From positions 3,120,001 to 3,152,000 of the forward strand of contig NZ_CP064923.1 in NCBI RefSeq assembly GCF_018336915.1: a stretch of DNA of 32,000 nucleotides, in the 5' to 3' direction. Under the pieces are notes generated by a model. That model saw only the letters and a list, made by a program, of their open reading frames with translations. It had not been told where the DNA came from and did no database searches. Below, piece after piece: positions 1 through 17,736 of this stretch. Each line of letters opens with the position of its first letter. Positions within the stretch are counted from its first letter, which is position 1. Source of the stretch: Acaryochloris marina S15. GTDB lineage: Bacteria > Cyanobacteriota > Cyanobacteriia > Thermosynechococcales > Thermosynechococcaceae. A program made the position numbers and the translations under genes.

Positions 1-1264
1 GCTCTCGCATATTGGTTTCATAGGCTAAGCCAATGACTCCCCTTGGAGTATCATTTGCAGGTGCTTTAAAGACACCTCTTGACTCATCTGTCCGACACCA
101 AATCCCCATCATATGCCCGCAGGGCGGCACCATAATCGGGCGTCCACCATTGCGAGGATTCGCGACTTTTATCCAGGGATAATAGATAGCCCCAAACATA
201 GAGCGGCGATTAAATTCATTCAGCCATTGAGCGACATGCTGGGGGCGCTGTTGTTCTGGGGGAACCGCAGTATTATCATTTTTGCCAATTTTGACAGGAG
301 GTGGATCAAGGACGGCCATCCGGTAAGCAGGGCCCGGAAAGGAATTCTCGCATAGGCTGACCATCATTTCCATGACTCCATGCACCTGATCCAGATCGAG
401 CAGGCCATTTTGATAGGCACGCATCAAGTCAGGACAGGCAATCATAGCCACTTCATCAATCTCGAATATGCCCTGCATGCCGGTGCGGTCATCCCGCTGC
501 CCCTGCAAATCACGAGGGAATCTTTCAGGCGTAGAGATTTGAGGCGGGGGGGTGATTTCAAAGGCTCCATTGGCTGGCCGACGAGATAGCGCTTGCCCAG
601 ACTGAGAGAGGTTCGCAACCGTGACGAATTCAGATTCTTCCAAAGCCGTGACGACATAGTCAGCAACAGCCGTGTCAACATCGGGATTCATGGTCAGGTA
701 TTCATACTTCTCTAGCTGTTCTCCACCCTGCCTAACGACAACGGTAAAGTATTCACCAGAGTTGAGAGGAGGCTCTTCATCGTCCTCCACTGGCTTGGGC
801 GCGCTCTCAAAGATAGCAACTTGAATCCGTGCATCTCCGGATGGAAGTGCGGGAGTATCCCCAGAGGCTTCTGGAAGCTTTAGACTAAATTTTAAGGAGG
901 GTCGGCCACTAAAAGTGGGTAATAAAGTTCCAGCTTCTTCTGGATCTGGTGCAGCAGATCCCGGTAATTGAGTGCCAATACTCGTCACCCAACAGCGTCC
1001 ACCGCCATTCAGAAACCAGCCTTGAACAGCGAAAGGTAAGTAGGCATCAAAATCAGTAAACCCATCCGAACCGGGTTTGGCAAAAAATTCCCGATATTGA
1101 TCCCAATTGGTAATCATCATCGGCTGAAACAATTCAGCATCTCCACGCACGTCTTCAGTAAACCCGATAAATCCGGCCACACTGAGACTGACACCTTCGA
1201 TCGGGCGACTTCCTCGGTCAACTTCTTCGACATAAACGCCAGGGGCAAAATAATCCAGGGCCAT
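1..1264 (-). CDS. Contractile tail sheath protein of an eCIS / phage-tail-like particle (first 421 codons; 3' end lies beyond the left window edge)
   Basis: Absent from the supplied ORF track because it runs off the edge. Manual minus-strand translation from ATG (complement of 1262-1264, GGAGGA 8 nt upstream) is stop-free down to position 2: MALDYFAPGVYVEEVDRGSRPIEGVSLSVAGFIGFTED...FLNGGGRCWVTSIG...FEIDEVAMIACPDLM...IYYPWIKVANPRNGGRPIMVPPCGHMMGIWCRTDESRGVFKAPANDTPRGV. The N-terminal APGVY.EE and C-terminal YYPW...PP.GH..G...R.D..RGV.KAPAN are hallmark contractile-sheath motifs (Afp2-4/Pvc2-4, phage sheath family). Track ORFs 113-355, 380-589 and 442-681 are shadow frames inside it. Confidence 0.9.
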   Translation of the reverse strand, partial: MALDYFAPGVYVEEVDRGSRPIEGVSLSVAGFIGFTEDVRGDAELFQPMMITNWDQYREFFAKPGSDGFTDFDAYLPFAVQGWFLNGGGRCWVTSIGTQLPGSAAPDPEEAGTLLPTFSGRPSLKFSLKLPEASGDTPALPSGDARIQVAIFESAPKPVEDDEEPPLNSGEYFTVVVRQGGEQLEKYEYLTMNPDVDTAVADYVVTALEESEFVTVANLSQSGQALSRRPANGAFEITPPPQISTPERFPRDLQGQRDDRTGMQGIFEIDEVAMIACPDLMRAYQNGLLDLDQVHGVMEMMVSLCENSFPGPAYRMAVLDPPPVKIGKNDNTAVPPEQQRPQHVAQWLNEFNRRSMFGAIYYPWIKVANPRNGGRPIMVPPCGHMMGIWCRTDESRGVFKAPANDTPRGVIGLAYETNMRE

Positions 1265-1304: not shown

Positions 1305-1865
1305 CTACTGCATAGGCGTGCTTTCACACCAATGATTCTTACTAGGTTTGGAAAGAGCAGGCGATCGTTCGGATACAAAAAATGGAATAGTGACGACTAC
1401 GTGTAGCGCCGGACGTAAGGGAGCACCTAACGCATGCCAGAGTTCGATTGGATTCATTAACCTTCCAGTGGAAATTCTCATCGGCAAACGGCCATAGCCT
1501 TGCAAGACTGGAGATAAATATTCAATCGGCAAGAATGAATGACGGGATAAGAGCATAAGGACTTCAGAAAGCAAATGTTGCTCTCCTAAGGCAGTAAAAT
1601 CCCAGACACTGACTAAGAAGGAAATATCAAACCACTTCAATGGCTTTGTCTGTTCTGCTTCTATATCCTGAATAGACTCTTCTTCCCCAGACAAATATTG
1701 TGGGGGGCAAGAATAGCTTTCACGAACGTCGTAACAGTAAAGGTTTACCCCAACTGCCATCTCCTGATCCACTTTGGGGTGGTTGAAAAATATCTGGTCC
1801 TTAGTGATGGAGGACGTTCCGTCAGACAGGATTTCTGCCAAGGTTTGAGTGACAGCAGGAATCAT
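1305..1865 (-). CDS. DUF4255 (Pvc16 N-terminal domain) protein, short form, eCIS Afp16/Pvc16-like
   Basis: 186-aa ORF ending 40 nt upstream of the sheath start on the same strand. N-terminus MIPAVTQTLAEILSDG...AVGVNLYCYDVRESY fits the DUF4255 pattern and parallels the N-terminus of the ORF at 4509. Confidence 0.8.
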   Translation of the reverse strand: MIPAVTQTLAEILSDGTSSITKDQIFFNHPKVDQEMAVGVNLYCYDVRESYSCPPQYLSGEEESIQDIEAEQTKPLKWFDISFLVSVWDFTALGEQHLLSEVLMLLSRHSFLPIEYLSPVLQGYGRLPMRISTGRLMNPIELWHALGAPLRPALHVVVTIPFFVSERSPALSKPSKNHWCESTPMQ

Positions 1866-2228: not shown

Positions 2229-2246
2229 CATGCTGATCTAAAGGAG

Positions 2247-2615: not shown

Positions 2616-3806
2616 GTGGAATTGGGGGCGACCATGCAGGTTAATCAACCCTTATCATTAAAAATTGAGTCTATTGGCCTAGGGGCTTTTTCAGATTGTC
2701 GCCAGTCCTTCTCAACACTGGATTTGAATCAGCATTGCCGGGGATTTTTAGATTTAATTGTTGATTATTTATCCCTCCCCAGCGCTTGGATTTTGCGACG
2801 TGACTTGGGTAATCAACTAAAGATTGAAATGGAGAAAGACGGTTCTAAACAGCCGGGTATACTCACTGCTAGTCACAATCGCACTTCTTTAAACGCTCTC
2901 CCATCCCCTTCGAACCTATGTTCTCAATTGGTTCTCGAATCCGCTACTGGTTTTGAGAAACCGGGATTACAGCACTGGGTTTACCAAGACTGGCAAGTCT
3001 ACAGTAGTTGTCTTTGTCGGCAACAGGGTCAGTACCTTTTATTTGCCTCAAGATCCCCTTTAACGATGCCAGAACAACATTGGGTAGACCGTCAAATCCT
3101 ATTAATCAGTGACTATTTTGATCTGCATTTAGCCTTTAGCCAACAGCAAGCTGCACTCTTAGCAAAACAGCAGCATCTTCATCAAACGACCCATCAACTG
3201 GGAACTCCATTGTCACTGATCACGCTTTACGCTGATATGTTGCGAGTCAAAACACCACCCGAAAGTGGTCAAGACTATCTAGTACCCTTGCAGCAAGCCG
3301 TTAAACAACTCCATCATCATCTCCAGGAGTTAGTGGATGACGAAGCAGAAGACAGCCCCATAATAGAGCAGTGTAATTTAAGAGAGTTGGTTGCTGAGAA
3401 TATACAGGCGCTTCAACCGCGCCTGCAAAGCCAGGAGATAGAAATCCACTGTCCACAAACGTCTGAGGTCATTGGGATAGACCGTTGGCAAATGCTTCAG
3501 GTTTTCGACAATCTGCTGAGTAATGCGCTGCATTTTAGTCCTCGTGGCAGCCAGATTACCCTCACTTGGCAGCGCTTCCAAACCGAAATTTTGATCGAGG
3601 TGAGAGATCAAGGACCAGGGTTATCACCGGAAGATTTGTGCTGTATGTTTTCCCCTTATTATTCACGACGAGATGGAGGGCGAGGATTAGGGCTAGCGAT
3701 CGCACAGCAAATCGTGTGTCGTCACCGGGGTCGACTGTGGGCGTCTAATTTGCCGGAGAGTGGTGCTCAGTTTTCGATTAGTTTGCCACAAGAGTCCAAG
3801 AATTAA
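2616..3806 (+). CDS. Soluble sensor histidine kinase (GAF-like N-terminal region + HisKA + HATPase_c)
   Basis: Start is GTG 2616 or ATG 2634. No hydrophobic TM segment. H-box HQLGTPLSLITLYADML; N-box LLSNALHFSP; G1 DQGPGL; G2 GGRGLGLAIAQQIV. The N-terminal ~190 aa has no recognisable kinase motif, and its assignment as a GAF-like sensor is inferred. Confidence 0.85.
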   Translation: MELGATMQVNQPLSLKIESIGLGAFSDCRQSFSTLDLNQHCRGFLDLIVDYLSLPSAWILRRDLGNQLKIEMEKDGSKQPGILTASHNRTSLNALPSPSNLCSQLVLESATGFEKPGLQHWVYQDWQVYSSCLCRQQGQYLLFASRSPLTMPEQHWVDRQILLISDYFDLHLAFSQQQAALLAKQQHLHQTTHQLGTPLSLITLYADMLRVKTPPESGQDYLVPLQQAVKQLHHHLQELVDDEAEDSPIIEQCNLRELVAENIQALQPRLQSQEIEIHCPQTSEVIGIDRWQMLQVFDNLLSNALHFSPRGSQITLTWQRFQTEILIEVRDQGPGLSPEDLCCMFSPYYSRRDGGRGLGLAIAQQIVCRHRGRLWASNLPESGAQFSISLPQESKN

Positions 3807-3820
3807 CGTTATCGGGGGAT

Positions 3821-4504
3821 TTGACCATGGGAAGCACTCAGCCACTATCCGTCGTTTTAGCAGATGATCAACCTACTTTTCGCCAGGGATTGCGAACGTT
3901 GCTGGGGTTTTACCAAGCCCAGGAAACGTTCCAATTTCACATTGTGGGTGAGGCAGCCTCAGCCGATCAGGCGATTAGTCTGGCGTTGGAACAGCATCCG
4001 ACTTTGCTGTTTCTGGATTTGGAACTACCAAAGGATGACGGCGTTGCCGCTCTGCAACACCTACGACAGCAGAACTACACAGGTAAGATTCTCGTCATTT
4101 CAGCCCATCAGGAAGATGAATGGGTGTTCCGTGCCATGCGAGCGGGGGCCGATGGGTATGTGTTTAAGTCTCAATTAGCCATGAATTTGCATCAAGCGAT
4201 TCAAACGGTGCTGAAGAATGAGGTTTTCCTACCGCCGAATGCGGCCACTGGTTTTTTCCGGTCTTTCCATTTCTATGAAGGCCGATCTGTTCAATCGGAA
4301 CAGACCCTCCATCTGACGGCCCGGGAAAAGCAGGTACTCCATTGGCTGGTTCAAGGGGCATCGAATCAAGCGATCGCAAATCACTTACACATTACGATCG
4401 CAACGGTGAAAGCCCACCTAACCGCTGTCTTTGAAAAGCTTGAGGTTAAAAGCCGCTCCCAGGCGATTGTCAAAGCCCTGAAGTTGGGTTTGGTGAACCC
4501 TTAA
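3821..4504 (+). CDS. NarL/FixJ-family response regulator (REC + LuxR-type HTH)
   Basis: The track start is TTG 3821. ATG 3827, preceded by GGGGGA, is more likely. REC motifs: VVLADDQ, LLFLDLELPKDDG (acceptor Asp region), ISAHQ. C-terminal HTH: LTAREKQVLHWLVQGASNQAIANHLHITIATVKAHL. The gene begins about 15-20 nt after the kinase stop. Confidence 0.9.
   Translation: MTMGSTQPLSVVLADDQPTFRQGLRTLLGFYQAQETFQFHIVGEAASADQAISLALEQHPTLLFLDLELPKDDGVAALQHLRQQNYTGKILVISAHQEDEWVFRAMRAGADGYVFKSQLAMNLHQAIQTVLKNEVFLPPNAATGFFRSFHFYEGRSVQSEQTLHLTAREKQVLHWLVQGASNQAIANHLHITIATVKAHLTAVFEKLEVKSRSQAIVKALKLGLVNP
4370..4377. repeat. HIP1 octamer GCGATCGC (one example of at least 11 copies in the window)
   Basis: Exact GCGATCGC copies located by eye at 3696, 4370, 4524, 12268, 15707, 17884, 19782, 22043, 22176, 25781 and 31708 (start coordinates). 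HIP1 over-representation is a known cyanobacterial genome signature. Confidence 0.9.
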
Positions 4505-4508
4505 AGCG

Positions 4509-5816
4509 ATGAGTAACTTTCTTGCGATCGCAACCGTAACTGCGGTTCTCCAACGCACCTTGCAAGCTGCCATTCAGGAAGATGTAGAAGGAGCCAGAGT
4601 CACCACCCTGCGTCCAGCCGACATCGGTAAGGGTACTCCGGTTTCTGGAGTGAATATTTACCTCTATCAAACATCCCTGAATACAGCCTGGAACAATACC
4701 GATCATCGGGGTCGGCATCGAAATAGCGATACGGCTAAACGATCTCGAACCGCCCTCGACCTGCACTATATGATCAGCGTCTATGGCAACGAAGTGGAGC
4801 TAGAACCCCAACGCTTATTGGGCAGTGTCATCCGCTCCCTTAGCGATGCTCAGGTAGTCCGAGAAGGGATGATTCAAGACACTCTTGCAGACTCCAACTA
4901 CGAATACTTAGCCGCCTCCGATTTGTGGCAGCAGGTGGAAGAGATTAACTTTATGCCCATGGATATGTCCTTGGAAGATCTATCCAAAGTCTGGTCGGTC
5001 TTCTTTCAAACCCCCTATGCCCTCTCCATTGCCTACCGTAGTACGGTCGTCATGATCGAAGGCCAGACCCCAGCTCAAAAAGCCCTGCCTGTAGCAAGTC
5101 GAGGCTTAGCTGTAGCCCCTTTTGCTGGCCAACCCCTGATCACAGAGATAGAGGCGATGACCGGAAAATTCGAGCCGATTGTGGCAAACTCCACGCTATT
5201 AATTCGGGGCAAGCGACTGCAGGGAAACCATACGGGCATCCGCATTGGGGCTGTCGATGTGGCCCCCTCTCAAGTGAGTGAAGGAGAACTGCTGTTGCCT
5301 TTAGTCCGCTTACCCTCCCACAGCCTGCGAGCTGGAGTCCAAAGTCTACAGGTTGTCCATCAATCCCAAACGCCAGCACCAACCCGACCCGGAGCTTGGC
5401 GTTCTGCTAGAGCTGCCTTGACTGCTCCCACCCACCAAGTCGGGATGGTCTCAAATGCATCTCCCTTTCTGTTGCGGCCAACAATTACCGACTTAGCCGT
5501 CACTACCCAAGGTCAAGAAGAAGAAGCTCGATCTGCTGCCATTCAAATCACAACAGACGTTACCATCGCTAGCCAGCAGCAGGTAACCCTGATTCTCAAT
5601 GAACGCACGGTTGAACATCCAGCTGCCTATCTGTTTGAAGCTCCTCATCGAACGACCGATACTCAATCCGTCACCTTTGAAGTGGAAGATGTGAAACCAG
5701 GAGAATATTTTGTCCGCATCCAAATCGACGGGGCAGAGAGTTCGTTGAAAATCGACCCAGAAGCAACCAGTCCAACATTTGGCAGCTTTGTGAGTCCCAC
5801 AGCCCAGATTATTTGA
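4509..5816 (+). CDS. DUF4255 (Pvc16_N) protein, long form with ~240-aa beta-rich C-terminal extension
   Basis: ATG lies 4 nt after the response-regulator stop. N-terminus MSNFLAIATVTAVLQRTLQAAI...GVNIYLYQTSLN is the DUF4255 pattern. The C-terminal half (ITEIEAMTG...LLIRGKRLQG...IRIGAVDV... and ...VTFEVEDVKPGEYFVRIQIDG) reads like two Ig/IPT-type beta domains; this is inference. Confidence 0.8.
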   Translation: MSNFLAIATVTAVLQRTLQAAIQEDVEGARVTTLRPADIGKGTPVSGVNIYLYQTSLNTAWNNTDHRGRHRNSDTAKRSRTALDLHYMISVYGNEVELEPQRLLGSVIRSLSDAQVVREGMIQDTLADSNYEYLAASDLWQQVEEINFMPMDMSLEDLSKVWSVFFQTPYALSIAYRSTVVMIEGQTPAQKALPVASRGLAVAPFAGQPLITEIEAMTGKFEPIVANSTLLIRGKRLQGNHTGIRIGAVDVAPSQVSEGELLLPLVRLPSHSLRAGVQSLQVVHQSQTPAPTRPGAWRSARAALTAPTHQVGMVSNASPFLLRPTITDLAVTTQGQEEEARSAAIQITTDVTIASQQQVTLILNERTVEHPAAYLFEAPHRTTDTQSVTFEVEDVKPGEYFVRIQIDGAESSLKIDPEATSPTFGSFVSPTAQII

Positions 5817-6077: not shown

Positions 6078-6317
6078 TTGCTGAGTATGACTAATGATTC
6101 CATAGAGCCTCGGATCGACTTAGAATCGGAAGCCCTGCAATACAAAAAACTGCACGAGTTAGGCAATTGTGCCCAAGCTGCAGGATTGATCGTGGGCCAT
6201 GGTCACCACCAGGGCAAGTATGAGATTTTACGACAAGGCCAAGCCCTAATGATGACACCCAAGGAAGCCCAAGCCTTTTTGCTTGAGCTATTGCAGTCGA
6301 TTGAGGCTTCGGAGTAA
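6078..6317 (+). CDS. Hypothetical small protein (79 aa from TTG 6078, or 76 aa from ATG 6087) in the eCIS accessory operon
   Basis: The stop TAA abuts the ATPase start (GTG 6318 / ATG 6324). No recognisable motif. Track ORF 6091-6357(-) is its antisense shadow. Confidence 0.5.
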   Translation: MLSMTNDSIEPRIDLESEALQYKKLHELGNCAQAAGLIVGHGHHQGKYEILRQGQALMMTPKEAQAFLLELLQSIEASE

Positions 6318-8318
6318 GTGCCCATGCAACAGGGGGATGCCGAATGGCAGGAGGCAAATTGGCTTTACTTCACCCAGGCTTTGCAACGGGTAAAGCAAGC
6401 CCTTCTTAATCAGGGGAAACAACTCGAATCTCAGCACCCATCCCCTGAGCCGATTGCTCCATTACCCCCATCGGAACTATCTCCTCCCTCTTATTTAGAG
6501 CAAATCAGTAAAGTCTTTGACCTAACCTCCTTTGCTCAGGATGTGCTGCTGCTCTGTATCGGCATGGAACTCGATCGAGGCTGGGAATCCATTTGTGCTC
6601 TAGCTCAAGGGAATCAAAGTCGGCCCTTCCCCACCCTAGGCTTAGCCCTAACTTGTTTTGCCGGATCGGATTGGAAAGGACTGCAGACCTTTCGGACCTT
6701 GCAAGAATGGCACTTAATTGAAGTAGGAGTGGGCACGGCTTTATCGACTCGGCCCCTATGCCTTGACCCCCATTTGTTACAGGTCCTGATGGGGGATAGC
6801 GAAATTGATCCGAGATTAAAGCCCTTGACCTTACCCTTTCCCTATCCCACGGAGTTGGTTCCTTCGCACCAAACGATTGCAGACCAAATGGTGCAAATCT
6901 GGTGGCGGGCTTTTCAACTGCAACAGTCGTTTCCCATCGTCCAACTTTGCGGACCTGATGTGGTCAGCCAGCAAGGAGTAACCCTGGCTGCTTGTAAACA
7001 AATAGGGTTGTGGCCGTTTGGACTAGCTGCAGAGACTTTACCTGTTGATCAACCTGGATTGCAGCTCATCCAAAAATTACTAGAACGAGAATGGCTATTG
7101 CATCATCGAGTGCTCGTCCTGCACTGTGATGGCTTGGACGACTCCTTGAAGGACCGAGATCGAGCATTAGCAAGTTTTATCGATCGTTTGGCTCTCCCTC
7201 TTATTATTTTGAACCGAGCCCGTCGCCCTCAGCATCTACGACTGATGGTCACCCATGAGGTTAGCTCGCCCAATCCCCAGGAACAACACCAAGTTTGGGA
7301 ACAGTCGTTGGGAGAATTCACAACGCAACTGAATGGTCAAGTAGAAGCATTAGTATCCCACTTCAATCTCAGTGCCACCAAAATCCAGGAGATCAGCCAT
7401 CAATTTCGACTGCAATCCCTAGCCAATAAAACCAGTGGGGAAACTCAGACTCCCTCCTCTCCAGGTGTCGTGTTGTGGCAAGCCTGTCGTCAACAGGCCC
7501 GGCCTCGACTCGATGAGCTAGCCCAGCGAATTGAATCCAGTAGTACTTGGGAAGATTTGGTTCTACCAGAAAAAGAGCAGCAAGTTCTAAAAGATATAGC
7601 AATCCATATCCGGCAGCGTCGGCAAGTGTATGAACAGTGGGGATTTCAAGGAAAAAGTCAGCGGGGGCTGGGGATTGCAGCCCTATTTGCTGGGGCCAGC
7701 GGTACGGGTAAGACTCTAGCAGCGGAGGTGCTAGCCAATACCCTGCAGCTAGATGTATATCGGATCGATCTGAGTTCGGTAGTGAGTAAATATATTGGCG
7801 AGACGGAGAAGAATTTGCGGCGGGTGTTTGACGCGGCGGAAGGGGGCGGCGTGATTCTTCTGTTTGACGAAGCCGATGCCCTCTTCGGCAAGCGATCGGA
7901 GGTAAAGGACAGTCATGATCGCCATGCCAATATTGAAGTGAGCTATCTATTGCAGCGGATGGAAGCGTATCGCGGTTTAGCGATCTTAACCACGAATCTT
8001 AAAGGTTCTCTCGATCAAGCGTTTCTACGTCGCATTCGGTTTATTGTTCAGTTCCCATTCCCAGATGCTAAGCAGCGAGCAGAGATTTGGCAGCATATTT
8101 TCCCGCAGCAAACTCCAACGAAGGGGTTAGATGCGAAAAAGCTGGCGAAGCTGAGTGTGTCGGGAGGGAATATTCGCAATATTGCTTTGAATGCAGCTTT
8201 CTTAGCAGCGGATGAGGGACAGCCTATAGGAATGCAGCACTTGTTGCAGGCGGCCCGTAGTGAGTATGTAAAGCTGGAGCGACCCCTGACTGATGCAGAG
8301 GTAAAAGGTTGGGTTTAG
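6318..8318 (+). CDS. AAA+ ATPase, eCIS Afp15/Pvc15-type (long non-ATPase N-region + single C-terminal AAA module)
   Basis: Walker A GASGTGKT, Walker B VILLFDEADALFGKR, then SYLLQRMEAY..LAILTTN and FLRRIRFIVQFPFPD (classic AAA second region of homology and lid). About 430 aa precede the ATPase module. Sits in the same operon as DUF4255. Confidence 0.9.
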   Translation: MPMQQGDAEWQEANWLYFTQALQRVKQALLNQGKQLESQHPSPEPIAPLPPSELSPPSYLEQISKVFDLTSFAQDVLLLCIGMELDRGWESICALAQGNQSRPFPTLGLALTCFAGSDWKGLQTFRTLQEWHLIEVGVGTALSTRPLCLDPHLLQVLMGDSEIDPRLKPLTLPFPYPTELVPSHQTIADQMVQIWWRAFQLQQSFPIVQLCGPDVVSQQGVTLAACKQIGLWPFGLAAETLPVDQPGLQLIQKLLEREWLLHHRVLVLHCDGLDDSLKDRDRALASFIDRLALPLIILNRARRPQHLRLMVTHEVSSPNPQEQHQVWEQSLGEFTTQLNGQVEALVSHFNLSATKIQEISHQFRLQSLANKTSGETQTPSSPGVVLWQACRQQARPRLDELAQRIESSSTWEDLVLPEKEQQVLKDIAIHIRQRRQVYEQWGFQGKSQRGLGIAALFAGASGTGKTLAAEVLANTLQLDVYRIDLSSVVSKYIGETEKNLRRVFDAAEGGGVILLFDEADALFGKRSEVKDSHDRHANIEVSYLLQRMEAYRGLAILTTNLKGSLDQAFLRRIRFIVQFPFPDAKQRAEIWQHIFPQQTPTKGLDAKKLAKLSVSGGNIRNIALNAAFLAADEGQPIGMQHLLQAARSEYVKLERPLTDAEVKGWV

Positions 8319-8603: not shown

Positions 8604-9008
8604 ATGGGCCAACCAACAACAAAAATAGTCATGGCCAATTGGCAAGCCAACAATCCACCAATTGGATTGTCAACGGATATGCTCGCTGAACTCAGCTACA
8701 GTGGCTTTGCCGCAGAAGAAGCAAAGAAACAACTCAATACTTATATTCAGCTCATTGATGCAGGCAATGCGGTTCAGCATCCGTCCGCTTTTATTGATGT
8801 CAAGCTTTACGTGGGCGGGCTAGATTTAGTCAGTATGTTTGTCGGCACTTACAGCGAGACAGGACGTAAGATCGACTCGATCATTGGTACAGGCGGCTCT
8901 AAAAAATCCAAACTGAGAAGTGTTGGTGGCACAAAAGGACATGGTTTTGTTGGTAACTATGTTCCCACCGTCGGCCAAGAAATCGCCCAAGATCTCCAAC
9001 AGCGATAG
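8604..9008 (+). CDS. Hypothetical protein (134 aa; start may be ATG 8631)
   Basis: ORF between the ATPase and the DUF4157 gene on the same strand. The sequence looks like a real protein (LSTDMLAELSYSGFAAEEAKKQLNTYIQLIDAGNAV...) but has no recognisable family motif. Confidence 0.45.
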   Translation: MGQPTTKIVMANWQANNPPIGLSTDMLAELSYSGFAAEEAKKQLNTYIQLIDAGNAVQHPSAFIDVKLYVGGLDLVSMFVGTYSETGRKIDSIIGTGGSKKSKLRSVGGTKGHGFVGNYVPTVGQEIAQDLQQR

Positions 9009-9137: not shown

Positions 9138-10763
9138 ATGTCAGTGCAGACGCATAAAAATCAGGTACAGCAAGGTAAAACAGACACTGTCCCTTCCTCT
9201 ACCCCACCCATTACGCAACCGACATCTCCATCACCCACTATTGAACCTAAGTCGAATGCTGAAGGTCTAGCAGAACATGCGGAACGGCTGAAAAAATTTC
9301 AAAGATTAGATTCAAATATGGTGCAGATGAGGCCCCCACGCTTAGGCCATAGCAATCCCATTCCTATTCAACCCAAACTGACGATTGGAGCACCCGGAGA
9401 TAAATATGAACAAGAGGCTGATCGCGTTGCCAAACGGGTCGTCACCCAAATTCATTCTCCCAAGAGCCTAGATACTCCATCATCCGCTCAACGCCAGGAT
9501 TTACCTGAACGAGATGAGCTAATGATGAAGCCTATTATTCAACGACACAACGGCCCTAAAGATGCGAATCCCAACCTAGAACAAGCCATTAACCAATCTA
9601 AAGGGGGTGGTCGTCCCCTGAATGATAAGATTCGCGGTCCAATGGAACAAGCTTTTGGAGCAAATTTTGGTAATGTGCGAGTCCATAACGATACAAAAGC
9701 CCATCAACTCAATGAATCTATCCAAGCGCGTGCCTTTACCACAGGCCAGGATCTCTTTTTTCGCCAAGGAGCCTACCAACCGGGCAACCGCGCAGGGCAA
9801 GAACTCCTAGCCCATGAGCTTACTCATGTCGTGCAGCAAAATGGGGTGTTGGTCAAGGAATCGAAATCCTCAAATGCTGATTTGCAAAAGTCAAATGCCG
9901 TTGTACAGGCACAATGGGTGGCAGGGAAAAAAGCTGAAACTTGGTATTGGGACCAAGTATTAGATGGTGTTACATGGTATATGGATTCATCTAATTCAAT
10001 GTGGTTTCAGATCACAAATGCTGAAGCAATAACGACTGGAACAGAGGAAGAATATACTACATTGCAGGGAAAGAAGAACAAGAAGAGTTGGATCGAGTGG
10101 AATGCTTTAAGTGTTGCACCTTTGGGTGGTGTTGGTGATCTTCTTTTTGAGTCAATGCAGTCGATGCAAAATGAGGATTTTGAATGGGGTTCAAATACTC
10201 TTGGAGGGCCGTTAGCGAAGAAACTGGCTACTCAACCGCCCAGAAAATATGGGAATAAAGCTACTCCCTTGGCTCTATGGCTATATAAAAAAGATGAGCC
10301 CGAACCTAAAGTATTTAACTGTTGGGAGGCAGTACTTATTGCAGCATTCAAAGCTGGTCTAATAGATAAAAATTATATTAAGAAAGCAATTGTTATTAAA
10401 GGTGGTGTTCCAGCTTTTGTCAAACCAATTATGGATGGCCCAAGTGGTAAGGCCGATGGCCCTCTGACTAAAGATAAGGTTGCAATTGCAAAGATCCCTT
10501 TTGCCATATCTACACCATTCGCAAAGGGAGTTGTAGTTGCTTTTGGTACTGATCCTGGCCACGTTGCGCTTGCTACAGGAAAACGAGTGTCAATAAAAAG
10601 TTCGGAAGTGGCTCAAGCGGTAGAGGCAGAAGAGGGAAATGAGATTTTGGAGTTGGATAGTGCGACGGAAGGTGTAAGCAAATCAACTATTGAGGAAACA
10701 ATGGCTCGAAATACTGCATATACCCGACAAGTTTGTTGGGGATCATTACCCAGTTCTTTCTAG
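9138..10763 (+). CDS. DUF4157 (HExxH, eCIS-associated) protein with a distinct C-terminal Cys/His module; candidate eCIS effector
   Basis: ATG preceded by GGGGGA. Disordered P/S/T/Q-rich first ~50 aa. DUF4157 signatures: LTIGAPGDKYEQEADRVA, RPLNDKIRGPMEQAFGANFGNVRVHNDTKA, AFTTGQDLFFRQGAYQP, LLAHELTHVVQQ (HELTH = 9813-9827). The C-terminal ~300 aa are unrelated to DUF4157 and contain KVFNCWEAVLIAAFKAG (Cys395, codon 10320-10322) and GTDPGHVALATGKR (His475, codon 10560-10562). Confidence 0.9.
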   Translation: MSVQTHKNQVQQGKTDTVPSSTPPITQPTSPSPTIEPKSNAEGLAEHAERLKKFQRLDSNMVQMRPPRLGHSNPIPIQPKLTIGAPGDKYEQEADRVAKRVVTQIHSPKSLDTPSSAQRQDLPERDELMMKPIIQRHNGPKDANPNLEQAINQSKGGGRPLNDKIRGPMEQAFGANFGNVRVHNDTKAHQLNESIQARAFTTGQDLFFRQGAYQPGNRAGQELLAHELTHVVQQNGVLVKESKSSNADLQKSNAVVQAQWVAGKKAETWYWDQVLDGVTWYMDSSNSMWFQITNAEAITTGTEEEYTTLQGKKNKKSWIEWNALSVAPLGGVGDLLFESMQSMQNEDFEWGSNTLGGPLAKKLATQPPRKYGNKATPLALWLYKKDEPEPKVFNCWEAVLIAAFKAGLIDKNYIKKAIVIKGGVPAFVKPIMDGPSGKADGPLTKDKVAIAKIPFAISTPFAKGVVVAFGTDPGHVALATGKRVSIKSSEVAQAVEAEEGNEILELDSATEGVSKSTIEETMARNTAYTRQVCWGSLPSSF

Positions 10764-10789: not shown

Positions 10790-11731
10790 TTATTTAGGGG
10801 CTACGTCGTGGAAGTGAGTGTAATCAATATATCGATGCCCATCTTGAGTCTGATGGAAAATATCGATGAATTTATGATTCCAAATAATGTCCAATGCCCC
10901 ATAGGTATGGCGAGCATGCAGAGATTGAGCCACTGTATCGTCAATCCCAGTCAGTGTGACAATTAGCGTCGCCTTGGTGCGCTCTAGCGATTCAGCAGTC
11001 GCGCCATAGAGTGGACTGGATTCATCAATCGGATGCATAACCGTCCAAGTCAGGGTAAAGGAAGGAGTACGAGGACGCAGCAAATTGAGATTATACAAAT
11101 GCCGCATGGCATCTCCCTCAGTGCTAACTTCATCCTGGAGAAAATAGAGATTAATTTCAGCTTCCAGAATTTGATTGCGGCGCTGATTGGCAGTACGAAA
11201 CATCAAAGTCGGTACGCCATTGTAAGGCGTAATCACCGCAACGTGGCTAAACAATACCCGAGTTGTTGGTCGAGAAAATCTCGCAAATGCCAAACCCGTA
11301 ATAAGGGCCACACTGAGAATACTCGTAAAAGCTTCTACCGTAACCACAAAATTGGCGTATGCCGTTGTCGGGTGCATGGCTCCATAGCCAATGGCTCCCA
11401 ACGTTTGCACACTGAAAAAGAACGCATCCCAAAAAGATCCTGGAGTCGCATTGGCAATACAATCTCCACCTGCCAAGAAAGCCAAAGCAAACAGAACATT
11501 AATGACCAAATAGCCGCCCACCAAAATCAGCAGAAATCCCAACCAGGGAATCGTTAACAGTAAATGATAGGGATCGCGCCAATAGGTGTACCAAACGCCC
11601 AGGCCAGAAATACTAAATTTGCCATCCTTAAACTTCAGATAGCTTTTTTGAGGCAAACTTTGGGCTAATTTTCGGCGGAGGGACTGACGGCGGCGGGAAT
11701 TCACAGGCGAACGCATAGAATGGACAATCAC
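10790..11731 (-). CDS. Inward-rectifier-type potassium channel (KirBac family)
   Basis: Two TM helices flank a pore loop with selectivity filter TLGAIGYG, followed by the Kir-type cytoplasmic beta domain (RPTTRVLFSHVAVI...PTLMFRTANQR...). Start is GTG 11731 (GTGA overlap with the upstream stop) or ATG 11716. Confidence 0.9.
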   Translation of the reverse strand: MIVHSMRSPVNSRRRQSLRRKLAQSLPQKSYLKFKDGKFSISGLGVWYTYWRDPYHLLLTIPWLGFLLILVGGYLVINVLFALAFLAGGDCIANATPGSFWDAFFFSVQTLGAIGYGAMHPTTAYANFVVTVEAFTSILSVALITGLAFARFSRPTTRVLFSHVAVITPYNGVPTLMFRTANQRRNQILEAEINLYFLQDEVSTEGDAMRHLYNLNLLRPRTPSFTLTWTVMHPIDESSPLYGATAESLERTKATLIVTLTGIDDTVAQSLHARHTYGALDIIWNHKFIDIFHQTQDGHRYIDYTHFHDVAPK

Positions 11732-12252: not shown

Positions 12253-13188
12253 CTATGATACGAGTTTGCGATCGCTCCAACGAGCCAGCACAATCCCTGC
12301 CAATACAATAACGCCCCCCAAGCCTTGCTGCAGGGTTAGCGCCTCTCCAAATAATCGCCAAGCCAAAATTGCCGCCGTAACCGGTTGCAGCAGCAAACTG
12401 ACAGAAGCAAAAGCAGAAGGCAAATGGGCCAAAGCAAACATAATCAAACTTTGGCCAATCACCTGAGAAATACAGGCTAATCCCACTAAAGACAACCACC
12501 CTATCGTCGTCACGGGTAAAAAGCTTTCTCCTGATAGCCAAGCGACAAAGAACAAAATAGTAGCCCCGACAGTACTGCTCGCAAAGGCAATAATTGCCGT
12601 GGAAAAATACAAACGTAACCGAGCAACAGACAGAATATATCCAGCGTAGAAAATGGCCGTAAGCAATCCTAAAGCATCTCCAAACAGATGTTGGGTATCT
12701 ATACTGGCACTAACCAATAAGGTGGCTCCAGACAAAACCAAAGCAAGGGCAGCCACAAACCATCGAGAGACAGTTTGCCCAAACAGTAGCCACCCCGCTA
12801 AGACTACGAAAATAGGGGCAAAGTTAGCCAACAAAGTCGCATTGGCCACAGAGGTAAATTGAATAGACCAATGCCAAACCGCCAAATCTGCCGCAAAGAA
12901 GCACCCTGCTGACATCAGGGGAAACAAATTTACACGCTGCCGCGGTGAGAGGGGTGGTGAAGTTGGGAGTGAGGTCCACAACCATAGTCCTAATAGAGGA
13001 GCGGCAAATCCTAATCGATAGAAAGCTGTCGCACTCGGTCCTAACTCACTCAAGCGAACAAAGATGGGGGCAAAAGCAATGCCCACAGCCCCCAGAAGCA
13101 GAGCCATGAAAGCATAGGGATTGGGTTTGACACCATGCGAACCAGCCTTTTTCTCTGTTAACTTGAGCTGGGTCATGGTAAATAGCAA
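12253..13188 (-). CDS. DMT-superfamily (EamA-type) transporter, about 10 TM
   Basis: Highly hydrophobic 311-aa ORF with two internally similar halves and typical EamA endings (...LLQPVTAAILAWRLFGEALTLQQGLGGVIVLAGIVL). Start is TTG 13188 or ATG 13176. Lies 30 nt upstream of the next gene on the same strand. Confidence 0.85.
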   Translation of the reverse strand: MLFTMTQLKLTEKKAGSHGVKPNPYAFMALLLGAVGIAFAPIFVRLSELGPSATAFYRLGFAAPLLGLWLWTSLPTSPPLSPRQRVNLFPLMSAGCFFAADLAVWHWSIQFTSVANATLLANFAPIFVVLAGWLLFGQTVSRWFVAALALVLSGATLLVSASIDTQHLFGDALGLLTAIFYAGYILSVARLRLYFSTAIIAFASSTVGATILFFVAWLSGESFLPVTTIGWLSLVGLACISQVIGQSLIMFALAHLPSAFASVSLLLQPVTAAILAWRLFGEALTLQQGLGGVIVLAGIVLARWSDRKLVS

Positions 13189-14016
13189 GTATCAACAGTC
13201 ATCTGGAGTTAATTATTCCAATCGTATAGCCACAAACATGTGCATACTCGAAAGTAATCAATTCAGGCTATAGCTGGCCCTGGAGCAATAAATTACTCAC
13301 ACACATCACAGCCATATCTGCCACAGGCTGTGATATCGATTTTCATAGCAACTCTCGATCAATATTATCCAACGTCTTGATCTAGAGACATGACTTGCTG
13401 AGCTTGCTCATGGTTACTTATAACGTGACAACGCCCATACCCAATAATATATTTGCTCCGTATCTTGGGCTGTTTGTCCACAATTTTTATTATGAAAGAT
13501 AAAAGCACTAAACAATCAACCTTATCATTGCTAATTTTGGATGTCTTCAAGAAACGATCTAGGTTTACCTCTGTAGGTATGGTCTTCACACAACTATTAC
13601 AGATAATGAGAATTCAGCACTGATATTACTAGCCTTTCAATATAGTTTCCCTGAAAATTCTGTACCTTATTTCAGCCATTTACTAGAGTATTTTAGAGTT
13701 CAAGCAACTTATTATTACTCCATTCATCCGAGAGACTGGATGCTTAAGAAAAACCAGCAGACTTAAACGACTCACCATTGCTATTCCAGAAGAATAATTT
13801 CCTCTTACCTACATGAAATAATAAATATTTTCAAGGGTCATGCTTACATAGCCAAAATGATAAAACCATAGATACGAAGTATGGTCAACTATCCCAGAGT
13901 ACGAAAGCAAGGGAAATAGATCTTTTACAGCCACTAATCAAATAAGGATGTAATTTCAATACCATTCTCTCCCACGATATCAACAATGGTCATTAGGGCA
14001 CCTATTTGAACTGAAG

Positions 14017-14910
14017 ATGAAAAGCACTTGCCCAACTTGCAAACGCCCCTTGTACTTGCCTGATAACAACCAGCCTCTGCGGAAATGGCTAGTTATTTGT
14101 TCTGATTGCTATGTACTATACCAAGCTGAGCCCGGTGTTGTGATTGGTGCATGGCTGGGGTTTTCCCATAATCGCCAAGATATTTATCAAGCCCGAATTC
14201 AGATGAAAACTGGATCTACGAAAACAGTAGAAATGAACCAGCTCATCAGTGCAAACGTTCCAATTATATTAGTGACACCTCTCAACGGCCTAGGTCAATT
14301 AAAGCCAATTTCATTAGTAGAACTCCAGACAAACCAGTCTCACTTTCTGCTTCACCCTCAGCGGCAGCTCTCCAAATATCAACGATACAGCGCTATTGGA
14401 GTCAGTATAATTGTTGTCTGCGTAGGTTTATCCATACAGAGCACGTTAGCCCCTATCATCATTGTGGTGGTGGTCAGCAGCCTTTTAGTAGGAAAATTAA
14501 TACCAAAAATCTTACGAAGCAAAAAACATCATTCTCCAGCTAAATATCGCTTAATTTTGGAGCAGCGACTCATTAAACAAAGCGACAATTGGGGAGAGCA
14601 GCTACAACAACTAAAAATAGAGTTATCAAAATTAGATCAAGCGAACAAACGACTCATTTCTTACAGTAAAGATGAATTATTCCACATCAGATCAATCTCA
14701 AACAAGCCAAGAAAACGCCAGTACTTTGAGAACAAGTATCACAGACTGAACGAATTGATTGAGCACTATATCTTGGCAAAGACTTTGATTGACACAAATA
14801 TCGCTATTATTCAGTTAACAGAAGAAGTGCCCATTGACCTAATAGATCAATTATCTAACTTCTCCTTGAAGATTAAGCATCTAGATAATCGCTATCAATC
14901 TATAACCTAA
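14017..14910 (+). CDS. Hypothetical zinc-ribbon / TM / coiled-coil protein (297 aa)
   Basis: N-terminal CPTC...(19 aa)...CSDC four-Cys ribbon. Central hydrophobic stretch YSAIGVSIIVVCVGLSIQSTLAPIIIVVVVSSLLVGKLI (1-2 TM). K/Q/L-rich C-terminal half predicted to be coiled coil. The gene is visibly AT-rich (about 35% GC in lines I counted), as is the upstream 830 bp. Confidence 0.6.
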   Translation: MKSTCPTCKRPLYLPDNNQPLRKWLVICSDCYVLYQAEPGVVIGAWLGFSHNRQDIYQARIQMKTGSTKTVEMNQLISANVPIILVTPLNGLGQLKPISLVELQTNQSHFLLHPQRQLSKYQRYSAIGVSIIVVCVGLSIQSTLAPIIIVVVVSSLLVGKLIPKILRSKKHHSPAKYRLILEQRLIKQSDNWGEQLQQLKIELSKLDQANKRLISYSKDELFHIRSISNKPRKRQYFENKYHRLNELIEHYILAKTLIDTNIAIIQLTEEVPIDLIDQLSNFSLKIKHLDNRYQSIT

Positions 14911-15031
14911 TCCGCCATACTCTTAACTCCTTGGGTATGAAGGCATAAAATACCTCCAATAGGCTTTCTATAAAATCGGCTCTATCTACTCTAAAACAAC
15001 AGATATTCTAGAGTTTGTAAGCCCTATTGCT

Positions 15032-16015
15032 TTATTGCAGAAGAACATCTTCTTTATGGTCAATGATCACTTTCTTATCTCTAATTAACTGATATCGTCC
15101 AGACCACCGACCTGGAATGAGGGGTTGTTGGGTACCCTTCTTCCCTAAAGAACGGGTCCATACCTTCTGAGATTCAGACACAGGACGATTAAACTGAGCA
15201 ACCATTTTGCCCTGAGGATCTTGGAGCTGCAAGCGTTCCTGATCTCCTTTGAGCATGCCATAGGTATGGACCCAAAACACTAGGGCAGGGCTATCTACCG
15301 GAATCACCCGATCCTTAAAATCCCCATCCCATAACTGCTCTAGTTTAGGCAGTTGCGTGGCAAAGCCAGCCCGAATCAATCCCGTTGATTGGTAGGGAAG
15401 GGCTAGGTTCCATAAGGGACTCTTGCTGCCCTGACACCCCAATTGGGATTCTGGCCCAGTAAACGGATCTATAACCTTGTCTTGGTAGCGAACACTCAAG
15501 TGAACATGGGGAAAAGAAGCCTTCCCAGAAGTACCTACTAAGCCTAGAGGCGTGCCCTCTTTCACTTTATCGCCCGGTTGAACCAGCACACTTCCCTGCC
15601 GCAGATGACAATATTGAGTCTGCCAGCTTTCATCATGTTCAATAACAACACCATTACCGCATTCCATTCCTTCAACGGCATCTGTTTGAGTTTGATCCTG
15701 AATTCGGCGATCGCGAATATTGTTCCGAGTGCGCAATACAGTCCCTGCTGCCGATGCCTTAACGGTAACCTCCTCTTGCTCATCAGAGATAGCAAAGTCG
15801 GTTCCTTTGTGGCCATCGTAAGTCATCCGGCCACAGCCAAAATCTACAGCTTCTGGCCCTGGATCCCGATCAGGATAAAGCAGAACAAAGCAGTCTTTGC
15901 CTAAGGTGCAATCAATGGGTAGCCCTAGCCGCAAGGTGGGGTTAGCTTGGGTCGCCAATTCACATCCCACCACAAAAAACAATCCCAACAGCAGTAGAAA
16001 AATGTACCTACGCAC
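15032..16015 (-). CDS. M23-family (LytM-type) metallopeptidase, probable lipoprotein
   Basis: GTG start. Signal sequence with lipobox LFFVVGC. M23 motifs HKGTDFA (HxxxD) and GKASFPHVHLSV (HxH). Confidence 0.9.
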   Translation of the reverse strand: MRRYIFLLLLGLFFVVGCELATQANPTLRLGLPIDCTLGKDCFVLLYPDRDPGPEAVDFGCGRMTYDGHKGTDFAISDEQEEVTVKASAAGTVLRTRNNIRDRRIQDQTQTDAVEGMECGNGVVIEHDESWQTQYCHLRQGSVLVQPGDKVKEGTPLGLVGTSGKASFPHVHLSVRYQDKVIDPFTGPESQLGCQGSKSPLWNLALPYQSTGLIRAGFATQLPKLEQLWDGDFKDRVIPVDSPALVFWVHTYGMLKGDQERLQLQDPQGKMVAQFNRPVSESQKVWTRSLGKKGTQQPLIPGRWSGRYQLIRDKKVIIDHKEDVLLQ

Positions 16016-16578
16016 AATATTGTTGCTCCTTGTCCTAAACCAGAGGTATGTGAACTCACTTTATCAATGGTTGATGAGTTCTAAGTGAATTAATAACGAT
16101 TGAATTTTATTCAAAATCTAGAATTAAGCTGAATAAATATCGATTTATGGTTTTCTAAATCCCTATTTATTTAGTTATGCTTTGTATTACTTTAATATCC
16201 AAACATTCACAATTCATCACAAATCTTCTACAGCAAAGCATTGCCAAGTAACCTTCTCAGCTTTTTGTAAAGATTGCTAATATTTATGAGCCATAGACTT
16301 ACTAAAGCGTTATAGCTGGAATACTTAGAAAGTAAAAATTAATAACTGCTTAAGAGATGATCACTTTACATTCTCGGAATCAGTACGATTATCAACATTT
16401 CTATTAATATTTTTATAGATATTTCAGAAGTTTTTTAATTTATAGTTAGCAAGGATTTTTTCAGTAGAGAAGAATTACTAGATACATGGGGGAATTGAAG
16501 ACTGTCTGGCGACAAAATCATATCTCCAAATTAATTGGGTAACAGATTCTTCTCGCGTAGAGCATTCATTTTACAGTT

Positions 16579-17736
16579 TTGCTACTCGTTCGAATGAAAG
16601 AGCTACAAGAAATCATTCCTTTTGTCATTCAAGCCGATCATCAAGATCCGTCCATTATTGTAGCGACTGTATTGCAGGCAGAAGAATCAAGCTACTGCAA
16701 GCCTGGAACTCGGATCCTATTAACCAAAACAGACCAAACCATTAAGGCAATTTGTGAGGATTATATTGATCAAAAAATTATTGACCAAGTTAAACAACTG
16801 GTTCAGATCAATGCCAGCCTTCAAGTATACCGATATCATGTCGATTGCCCCCATAAACTGAATAAAACAAGCTCTCAGGGCGGAACTACAATTTTACTGG
16901 AGCCTCTCAATAGCCGATCGACTAGAGCTCAGTTTGATTTTATCGCCGAATGTTATAGCGAGAACCAATCTGGGGCAATCGCTACCGTTTTTACAGTAGA
17001 AGGGGCTATTCCTGCCCAAATCGCCTCCCGATTATTTCTCAAAATGGATGGTTCAGTAGCCAATCAAATTGGGGACCATTTTCTCACCAATCTCATTTTT
17101 CAAGATACCGTCAAGATACTGGCAGCGGGGCAAACTCGGACCAGAAGTTATCCCTTTATTGACGGTTATGTTCAAGCCCTGATCGAAGTCATTACTCCTC
17201 CCATCCAGCTCTATATCTTTGGCATTACACCTTACACCTCTCCCATTACACTCCTTGCCAAACAGTTGGGGTGGACCGTGGTCATCATTGAGCATCCATC
17301 ACGAGAGATTAAACTCAACCATTTCCCAGAGGCGGATCATATTCTGAAAGTAGATACCCAGGATCTGCCCAAACAAATTCAGCTCTCGTCTTATTCAGCT
17401 GCTGTTGTAATGACAGGAAACTTTGAGCAGGATTTGGCGATAGTAAAGTTTCTATGGTCTAGTGCCATAGGCTATTTAGGTATCCCTGGCACCAAAGCAA
17501 GAGCGCAACAACTGATTCAAGGGCTGCAGGGTGGGGGCACACTTACAACTCAACAACTCAATCGGCTGCATGGTCCCATCGGCCTAGATATCGGTGCAGA
17601 AACGCCCAGTGAAATCGCTTTAGCGATAGTGTCTGAGATCCAGGCCGTTGTTAAACATCGCACTGGCTCGTTTTTACGAGAACAGCAAAACTCGATCCAT
17701 GATTCTGTTCCTGATTTGATTTCCCTGATCAAATAA
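16579..17736 (+). CDS. XdhC/CoxI-family protein (molybdoenzyme maturation accessory factor family)
   Basis: The track start is TTG 16579; ATG 16594 (MKELQEI...) is more likely. XdhC_CoxI N-domain: IIVATVLQAEESSYCKPGTRILL. Rossmann-like C-domain: LYIFGITPYTSPITLLAKQLGWTVVIIE...GPIGLDIGAETPSEIALAIVSEI. Confidence 0.85.
   Translation: MLLVRMKELQEIIPFVIQADHQDPSIIVATVLQAEESSYCKPGTRILLTKTDQTIKAICEDYIDQKIIDQVKQLVQINASLQVYRYHVDCPHKLNKTSSQGGTTILLEPLNSRSTRAQFDFIAECYSENQSGAIATVFTVEGAIPAQIASRLFLKMDGSVANQIGDHFLTNLIFQDTVKILAAGQTRTRSYPFIDGYVQALIEVITPPIQLYIFGITPYTSPITLLAKQLGWTVVIIEHPSREIKLNHFPEADHILKVDTQDLPKQIQLSSYSAAVVMTGNFEQDLAIVKFLWSSAIGYLGIPGTKARAQQLIQGLQGGGTLTTQQLNRLHGPIGLDIGAETPSEIALAIVSEIQAVVKHRTGSFLREQQNSIHDSVPDLISLIK

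Follow-up and report, generated by a model that had tools for sequence, protein, structure and literature searches.

Among the extracellular contractile injection systems (eCIS), the cargos Cgo1 and Cgo2 of AlgoCIS, from Algoriphagus machipongonensis, offer a close described parallel to the gene analysed here. To enter the tube lumen they need their disordered N-terminal region, this loading depends on the AAA+ protein Alg15, and both DUF4157 and the domain at the C-terminus are dispensable for it (preprint 10.64898/2026.05.27.728243). Geller et al. (2021) described DUF4157 as a core eCIS domain, situated N-terminally in the toxins encoded at the 3' end (PMC8213781), and the thylakoid-anchored contractile injection system (CIS) of Anabaena co-purifies with two DUF4157 proteins, Alr3311 and Alr3312 (PMC8894136). 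One toxin of this kind, EAT14 of Chitinophaga rupis, has been validated: it joins DUF4157 to a transglutaminase-like thiol enzyme, and mutants of its catalytic residues are non-toxic (PMC11297309). We analysed a window, i.e., one continuous stretch of 32,000 nucleotides of Acaryochloris marina S15 (contig NZ_CP064923.1, positions 3,120,001 to 3,152,000), in which all positions below are counted, and more precisely a complete open reading frame (ORF) at 9138..10763 on the + strand. We consider this gene likely to code for a cargo (effector) of a CIS, either extracellular or of the cyanobacterial thylakoid type. The last domain of this cargo, called sd2 in the following, would be an NlpC/P60-like enzyme carried on a portable C-terminal cassette.

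The protein, of 541 amino acids (aa) in the ORF listing, consists of four parts: a leader rich in P, S, T and Q, a DUF4157 core bearing an HExxH motif, and two further domains, sd1 and sd2. The same order, from a disordered N-terminus to DUF4157 and then to a variable C-terminal domain, is found in Cgo1 and Cgo2 and in the eCIS-associated toxins (EATs) studied by Geller et al. (2021) and Danov et al. (2024), and the C-terminal domains of these proteins are hypervariable between loci, as they are here. Together with the surroundings of the gene, a locus with an ATPase, two Pvc16_N genes and a sheath gene, this layout, which is that of Cgo1 and Cgo2, bears out the original prediction, made from the DNA letters, of an eCIS payload. 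An orthologue with 97% identity and the same called start is present in a syntenic contig.

The leader (aa 1-50; 9138..9287, +) is a low-complexity segment and the presumed loading sequence. Its composition, as counted, is strongly disorder-like (50% P/S/T/Q, 14% order-promoting residues, Kyte-Doolittle value of -1.07), in agreement with the leader of about 50 aa that had been predicted. N-terminal of the DUF4157 core, aa 78-95 (9369..9422, +) carry the conserved motif QPKLTIGAPGDKYEQEAD; of the 79 DUF4157 family members in which 70 aa or more precede the core, 20 match a strict regular expression for this motif, which lies a median of 62 aa ahead of the Pfam core. The sole Pfam domain of the protein is PF13699 (eCIS_core), formerly DUF4157 and now named 'eCIS core domain', which covers aa 160-236 (9615..9845, +) with an E-value of 6.3e-34 and a score of 116.4 bits, for a cut-off of 22 bits, over profile positions 1-77 of 79. 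A codon check places its HExxH motif, HELTH, at aa 226-230 (9813-9827). DUF4157 had been thought to fill the first ~235 aa; the HELTH-bearing core was correctly recognised, but the domain extends over aa 160-236 only. The sequence contains no obvious signal peptide, and the gene has no flanking repeats, tRNA-like landmarks or promoter of its own.

The C-terminal half had been taken for one module. The mapping of its matches contradicts this and divides it into two separable domains, sd1 (aa 255-340; 9900..10157, +) and sd2 (aa 341-541; 10158..10760, +). A word-indexed search with the C-terminal half in 5.8 billion clusters returned two relatives only, and HMMER, run exhaustively over 1.84 billion representatives with a three-sequence profile, returned 290 matches. 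Among the 150 matches listed, sd1 occurs without sd2 in 39, sd2 without sd1 in 101, and both occur together in 10; a protein that seemed to consist of the module alone (P0002) was discarded because its ORF runs open up to the edge of the contig. Of 108 sd2 proteins, 55 contain DUF4157, which also accompanies sd1 in 22 of the 39 sd1-only proteins listed; where DUF4157 is present, sd1 starts 17-98 aa after it. The tails that follow sd1 in 36 of the sd1-only proteins fall into 24 unrelated clusters. For this reason sd1 behaves as an adaptor, or 'pre-toxin', domain and not as a part of one toxin. It is unannotated and beta-rich in the AlphaFold2 (AF2) model, with a pLDDT of about 83-96, and its seven Trp in 86 residues suggest a role in the binding of a glycan or another ligand. 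A 125-kb Pseudanabaena plasmid likewise has a gene for a DUF4157-sd1 protein (NZ_AP017564.1 93511-93738); the cassette therefore occurs on mobile DNA.

A cysteine and a histidine, 80 residues apart, had been singled out in the second of these domains, and both are confirmed by the ORF translation and a codon check: C395 lies at 10320-10322 (in FNCWEAVL) and H475 at 10560-10562 (in GHVALATG), both on the + strand. To these we add E505 (10650-10652, +). All 69 full-length sd2 domains compared have N394, C395, G464 and H475 without exception; 63 of them keep E505 and 65 keep D507. The N-C-W-E...G...H signature is also invariant in 93 more distant members, hence in more than 160 sequences overall, and the third position keeps Glu or Asp. 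As had been noticed, the C-terminal half matches nothing that can be named: it has no match in Pfam (E<1), in NCBIfam, in the PDB with phmmer or in PHROGs, and sd2 appears from these searches to belong to a family of roughly 290 clusters that no domain database recognises. The idea of a new effector family holds for an unannotated subfamily but not for a new superfamily, the superfamily being the known NlpC/P60-CHAP one.

Indeed, we propose that sd2 is a very divergent member of the NlpC/P60-CHAP superfamily (papain-like, clan CA) with a predicted C395-H475-E505 triad, on the basis of transitive homology, a weak profile-profile alignment and AF2 secondary structure. The bridge is the family member P0063. 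It is found by the sd2 profile with an E-value of 2e-21, and the same region reaches 32.7 bits with Pfam NLPC_P60, for a gathering score of 23 bits. This P0063 domain matches about 25 solved NlpC/P60 structures, including RipA and RipB (E ~6e-4), MepS/Spr, CwlO and a diffocin hub-hydrolase; phage families described as 'tail protein with lysin activity' are matched by it as well. Its His aligns with the His motif of RipA and its Glu, 12 residues on, aligns with the RipA Glu at +12; we take these two RipA residues to be the catalytic His432 and Glu444 of the literature numbering. Among the 93 distant members, which form a sister subfamily, 43 carry SH3b wall-binding domains, four match CHAP weakly (E ~1e-3), and some are labelled as NlpC-family hydrolases by their sources. 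When the sd2 profile, without P0063, was aligned by hhalign with four E. coli NlpC/P60 paralogues, the alignment was centred on the His motif (P = 0.003, probability 11%); in its extended form, C395, H475 and E505 fall onto the catalytic residues C68, H119 and H131 of MepS.

The AF2 model points the same way. An earlier model, computed from a 3-sequence alignment, was unusable (pLDDT 44) and has been superseded by one computed from a 57-sequence alignment (pLDDT 88.7, pTM 0.78). In the numbering of this model, Cys395 is the first residue of helix 141-151 and His475 the first of strand 221-231, while Glu505 stands at the end of strand 245-252, after a short helical insertion, and is followed by two more strands. 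The predicted secondary structure agrees with the papain/NlpC-P60 arrangement. The original suggestion of a papain-, NlpC/P60- or CHAP-like module is supported by the P0063 bridge, the weak CHAP matches of four members, the register of the triad in the extended alignment and the AF2 topology; the structural check that went with it gave a confident model of papain-type topology, but no significant Foldseek match.

By analogy with Cgo1 and Cgo2, the disordered leader would direct the cargo into the tube lumen, aided by the AAA+ ATPase encoded two genes upstream, and contraction of the sheath would expel it into a target cell. There, as judged by homology, the Cys395-His475-Glu505 triad of sd2 may hydrolyse an amide or peptide bond, most likely in the peptidoglycan stem peptide of a bacterial target. 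Peptidoglycan is our best guess for the substrate because all the statistically supported homology links lead to wall hydrolases and because SH3b domains occur in the sister subfamily. Recombination at the conserved DUF4157 region, or close to it, would exchange the C-terminal cassette between CIS loci.

Several points weigh against this reading. For the enzyme, the direct profile-profile signal is weak, being significant only around the His motif; hmmsearch of the PDB with sd2 profiles of 3 and of 57 sequences gave no match; Foldseek, run with the AF2 model on the PDB and BFVD, found no significant neighbour (best PDB E 0.07, TM <=0.3); and it is from the AF2 topology that we infer the proximity of Cys395 and His475. 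For the peptidoglycan target, no immunity-like gene is adjacent, the neighbours in the window being an orphan 134-aa ORF and a convergent Kir-type channel gene; Pfam detects no SH3b or other wall-binding domain in the cargo protein; and EAT14, a validated DUF4157 toxin of papain-superfamily fold, acts in the cytoplasm. For the delivery, DUF4157 is dispensable in AlgoCIS loading, and two myxobacterial sd2 loci, both toxin islands, have no CIS genes within 10 kb. More generally, cargo function and sd2 activity are predictions for the whole sd2 family, drawn from sequence, model and analogy.

The structural points among these would also fit an sd2 that is catalytically inert, or a binding or scaffolding domain, in which Cys and His are conserved for structure or for metal binding and not as a papain-type site. 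Such a domain would be in keeping with the lack of a significant Foldseek match to papain-like structures, with the direct profile-profile probability of 11% and with a Cys-His geometry read from AF2 topology. It accounts poorly, however, for N-C-W-E, G and H being invariant in more than 160 diverse sequences with Glu or Asp at the third position, for three residues collinear with the MepS triad, for the Cys at the N-terminus of a helix and the His at the start of a strand, and for a family member that passes the curated Pfam NLPC_P60 threshold. We give this explanation hardly any credence.

The nature of the target raises a more serious alternative, in which the protein is an eCIS cargo but sd2 is a protease, deamidase or transglutaminase-type toxin acting on an intracellular protein, in a bacterial or a eukaryotic target, e.g., a grazer. 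The non-significant top matches of Foldseek are mostly papain-like (calpain, staphopain, ATG4, the NlpC/P60 dipeptidyl-peptidase VI, DUF1460, C39, MCF and the diffocin hub-hydrolase), an enrichment which, at the level of the model, is suggestive; most of them, such as calpain, staphopain, ATG4 and MCF, are intracellular papain-like proteases. The NCWE motif also departs from the canonical DCSG of the wall hydrolases, EAT14 kills both E. coli and yeast from the cytoplasm, and cyanobacterial CISs have been proposed to target predators (PMC8894136). The only statistically supported links, however, are those to peptidoglycan endopeptidases (RipA/B, MepS, CwlO), to phage tail lysins and to CHAP; SH3b is fused to the domain in the sister subfamily; and many eCIS toxins have no immunity gene whatever their target (PMC8213781). 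We regard an intracellular target as unlikely. It keeps some weight because the cargo, like the sd2 subfamily as a whole, has no wall-binding domain and because no immunity gene was found, either here or in the islands of type VI secretion systems (T6SS) described below, where the neighbours are sibling effectors.

The links of P0063 to phage 'tail protein with lysin activity' families and to the diffocin hub-hydrolase CD1368, which is also rank 2 in Foldseek (probability 0.84), evoke still another function, that of a lysis or penetration factor which is not injected: it would open the producer's own wall for particle release or, mounted on the particle, cut the target wall locally. eCIS particles are freed by lysis, to which toxins may contribute according to Geller et al. 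(PMC8213781), and the Anabaena CIS has been linked to ghost-cell formation (PMC8894136). Against such a role stand the cargo architecture, with a disordered leader and DUF4157 and without fusion to a spike, hub or tape-measure protein, the lack of a signal peptide or of a holin partner that would give access to the periplasm, and the position of the same module in T6SS islands, where it lies among effectors that follow VgrG and a PAAR-like gene. We find a lysis factor very improbable and retain an injected cargo, with peptidoglycan as its probable substrate.

The portability of the C-terminal cassette emerges from the comparison of loci. We assembled 80 eCIS loci from many phyla, anchored on the ATPase, 70 of which have at least 2.5 kb downstream. 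In 48 of these 70, one to four DUF4157 ORFs of the same orientation come next, the median distance from the ATPase being 185 nt. Taken from these loci and from the window itself, 85 DUF4157 C-terminal tails form 58 single-linkage clusters, 50 of them singletons. Neither sd1 nor sd2 was found in any of the 80 ATPase-anchored loci, and NlpC/P60 domains, also sought there, were not found either. Further afield, sd2 without sd1 stands behind DUF4157 in eCIS loci of Leptolyngbya and Plantactinospora. The two domains together recur in acidobacterial T6SS islands (Pyrinomonadaceae-type; L001:8774-12056, L086:4714-11300, L087), downstream of VgrG, a PAAR-like DUF4280 gene, a SPOR gene and a stand-alone DUF4157 gene of 190 aa. 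There, sd1+sd2 follows a different, proline-rich 'PPVYRPQ' leader, common to sibling effectors that have the leader 'PPVYRPQ...KVLQ.K' in common and differ in their C-termini (GNAT, deaminase-like, sd1+sd2). In this shared leader, the T6SS seem to have an equivalent of the eCIS leader system, although T6SS delivery of the sd1+sd2 proteins is itself a prediction from the island context. The genes flanking two of the island proteins (P0001 and P0151) were considered as immunity genes and rejected, since they carry the effector leader and are thus sibling effectors. In myxobacteria (Pyxidicoccus and a metagenomic relative; L085:10001-19647, L089:10001-19819), a Laminin_G_3-rich protein of ~2,630 aa always comes after the DUF4157-sd2 gene, and this neighbourhood may reflect a different delivery route or partnership.

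On a shorter timescale, the cargo gene shows mosaic divergence from its counterpart in a 98.8%-identical strain (contig L003). Of the 32 differences between the two genes, 29 lie within 9330-9689, i.e., in 360 nt that correspond to the leader region and the start of DUF4157, and they lead to 14 amino-acid changes; against the background of the locus, this accumulation has a Poisson P of 8e-8. The 864 nt of sd1 and sd2 (9900-10763) contain three differences. A mosaic boundary is thus observed at or just after DUF4157, and between these strains it is the N-terminal part of the cargo that differs, not its C-terminal part. The cluster at 9330-9689 suggests either that a paralogous DUF4157 gene has served as donor in gene conversion or that the loading region is under diversifying selection, and DUF4157 is a likely recombination site. 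The comparison of the two strains revealed other hot spots, in the Pvc16_N/TIG gene at 4509-5816 (30 differences), in a divergent-promoter intergenic region at 1866-2615 (25 differences) and at 14017-14910 (24 differences), where a 297-aa ORF has no Pfam match and a GC content of 0.396. The sheath fragment at 1-1264 is free of differences.

The C-terminal module had first been called swapped-in on account of a break in GC content at about 9850, from 47-58% to 33-37%. The direction of the change is right, the GC content being 0.479 over aa 1-236 and 0.420 over aa 255-541, but its size was overestimated. The best change point of the gene is at 9927, with a z of 2.56, which is inside the range of the other ORFs of the window (|z| of 2.0-2.64). 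We therefore rejected the GC break as a strong sign of horizontal acquisition, its amplitude and its z-score both being within the range of the other ORFs. GC at third codon positions (GC3) is more telling than GC: that of the cargo gene, 0.347, is the lowest in the window, and it amounts to 0.371 in the leader region, 0.416 in DUF4157, 0.337 in sd1 and 0.289 in sd2, although the gap between the two halves is only ~2 standard errors. Dips as deep as that of the cargo gene are common in the genome, since several stretches of the window (1501-3000, 13001-15000, 16001-17000 and 27001-28000), mostly intergenic, are AT-rich, with a GC content of 0.34-0.39 for a window mean of 0.456. Composition by itself is too weak to justify the 'swapped-in' label. 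The label is nevertheless supported by comparison, through the hypervariable tails, the recurrence in T6SS islands and the mosaic boundary, and module exchange is well supported at this level of sequence comparison rather than by composition. Similarly, the expectation that DUF4157 is kept while the tail varies is correct across loci, with 58 clusters for 85 tails, but not between close strains, in which the N-terminal part differs. Overall, the original interpretation, an eCIS payload with an exchanged Cys/His papain-like module, is supported, though partly on evidence other than composition.

The locus around the cargo gene is a genuine CIS locus, which comprises, in the window and the syntenic contig, two Pvc16_N genes, an AAA+/WHD ATPase, a sheath and a tube. 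At the edge of the window, and running off it, lies a sheath gene of which the first 421 codons are present (1..1264, -); over these 421 aa, the fragment does not differ from the N-terminus of the 566-aa sheath (Phage_sheath_1, Phage_sheath_1C) of L003, a contig that is fully syntenic and extends into the whole sheath gene and a gp19-type tube gene. A second Pvc16_N gene (1305..1865, -; Pfam Pvc16_N 9.9e-24) heads this divergent structural operon. On the + strand, the accessory operon contains a histidine kinase gene (2616-3806; Pfam HATPase_c, HisKA) and a LuxR/GerE response regulator gene (3821-4504; Pfam Response_reg, GerE), which sit between the two Pvc16_N genes. GerE regulators are a recognised feature of eCIS loci (PMC8213781), and this pair fits the published idea that such regulators, and kinases, control them. 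It is followed by the other Pvc16_N gene (4509..5816, +; Pfam Pvc16_N 4.1e-45), for a DUF4255-type tail terminator/cap protein with a weak TIG-like region.

Between this gene and that of the ATPase, there are two small ORFs. One of them, at 6078..6317 (+), encodes 79 aa without any Pfam family and has 49% identity (E 3e-19) with a 69-aa ORF located directly upstream of a DUF4157-sd2 cargo gene in Leptolyngbya sp. GGD (L084:9769-9978); from this conservation in cyanobacterial eCIS loci, it appears to be a small accessory protein. The ATPase (6318..8318, +), of 666 aa, is Pvc15/Afp15-like, with WHD and AAA domains (Pfam AAA 5.5e-25, WHD 1e-11). It has 581 eCIS-type relatives, the closest, in Coleofasciculus, Nostocales, Laspinema and Nostoc, having 50-55% identity, and it is the presumed cargo-loading ATPase, a role that we infer by analogy with Alg15. 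These closest relatives, together with the presence of DUF1400 proteins, point towards filamentous cyanobacteria.

The cargo gene lies 820 nt 3' of the ATPase gene, with a single ORF between them (8604..9008, +; ORF listing). This orphan ORF of 134 aa has no Pfam or NCBIfam match and no evident signal peptide, and its only homologue is in the orthologous contig, with none in the 80 eCIS loci. We rejected it as an sd2-linked immunity or chaperone partner, as it is unlike the genes upstream of the family members P0001 and P0024 and has no homologues in these loci. On the other side, a prokaryotic Kir-type (IRK_C) potassium-channel gene (10790-11731, -) converges on the cargo gene across a gap of 26 nt, and beyond it are unrelated housekeeping genes; the accessory operon therefore ends, on its 3' side, with the cargo gene. 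A Peptidase_M23 gene is found at 15032-16015 (-). Neither it nor the Kir-type channel gene appears to be linked to the CIS locus.

The type of system and the architecture of the cargo were already known, and the current picture of how eCIS work is unchanged by this cargo. What is new is the annotation of sd1 and of sd2, the NCWE subfamily of NlpC/P60-CHAP, and a cassette that eCIS and T6SS have in common. A testable annotation, that of a candidate NlpC/P60-like hydrolase with a Cys395-His475-Glu505 triad, becomes available for about 290 sequence clusters that domain databases do not recognise, and sd1 is a second unannotated domain, an adaptor placed before many different DUF4157-linked toxin tails. 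The occurrence of the same cassette in cyanobacterial and actinomycete eCIS loci and in acidobacterial T6SS islands is a clear case of a payload shared by contractile systems, and the mosaic divergence from the close strain points to DUF4157 as the likely recombination site. For the engineering of eCIS delivery tools, the protein offers one more natural leader/DUF4157/cargo design, from a cyanobacterium. We would go further only tentatively, and with a scenario that we think improbable as a whole: two new families of domains, sd1 and sd2, would make up a payload cassette used across systems, in which sd1, the Trp-rich 'pre-toxin' adaptor, marks the recombination boundary and serves a delivery, refolding or target-binding step needed by both eCIS and T6SS, and in which sd2 has shifted from wall hydrolysis to a new substrate, e.g., an intracellular protein of grazers or competitors. 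If sd2 had moved to a new substrate in this way, the lack of an immunity gene in all the contexts examined would be explained.

Compared with the known systems, the cargo thus combines familiar and distinct traits. Its sd1 and sd2 domains are unrelated to the C-terminal domains of Cgo1 and Cgo2 or of any tested EAT, and the leaders are system-specific; moreover, loading has been demonstrated for AlgoCIS and is predicted, as is injection, for the present system. EAT14 resembles our cargo in having an N-terminal DUF4157 and a C-terminal thiol enzyme of the papain superfamily, but its residues follow the order Cys298...Asp397...His410, of the microbial transglutaminase type, whereas those of sd2 follow the order Cys...His...Glu, of the NlpC/P60 type; the two proteins do not detect each other by sequence, and EAT14 lacks sd1.

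Papain-like hydrolases delivered by a contractile machine, as proposed here, are also represented by the T6SS amidase effectors (Tae1-4) and by polymorphic papain-fold toxins. Among the latter, 'Tox-PL' domains were reportedly described by Zhang et al. in 2012, with 'PVC-metallopeptidase' as a delivery marker. The Tae families have no Pfam-detectable similarity to the cargo, and an adjacent immunity gene for a periplasmic protein, as in the Tae/Tai pairs, was found neither here nor in the T6SS islands. In the diffocin hub-hydrolase CD1368 and the phage tail NlpC/P60 lysins, an NlpC/P60-type domain is tied to a contractile tail-like device, with weak sequence and fold matches to the sd2 family, but it is located within a structural hub or tail protein, whereas here a protein of the cargo type, equipped with a leader and DUF4157, carries it.

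Finally, sd2 itself is best compared with the NlpC/P60 endopeptidases (E. coli MepS/Spr, M. tuberculosis RipA/RipB, B. subtilis CwlO) and the CHAP amidases. It differs from the NlpC/P60 enzymes by its NCWE motif, in place of DCSG, by a Cys-His spacing of 65-80 aa instead of about 50, and by two helical elements, an extra N-terminal subdomain (aa 341-390) and an insertion that separates the His strand from the Glu strand; the protein of the window has no signal peptide and is itself not picked up by the Pfam or PDB profiles of NlpC/P60. Yet sd2 has in common with the endopeptidases and the amidases the order Cys, His and third polar residue, and with the NlpC/P60 enzymes the G-D/x-hydrophobic-x-F...H-V-G/A-hydrophobic motif around the His and, in the AF2 model, a Cys at the N-terminus of a helix that is followed by an antiparallel sheet.

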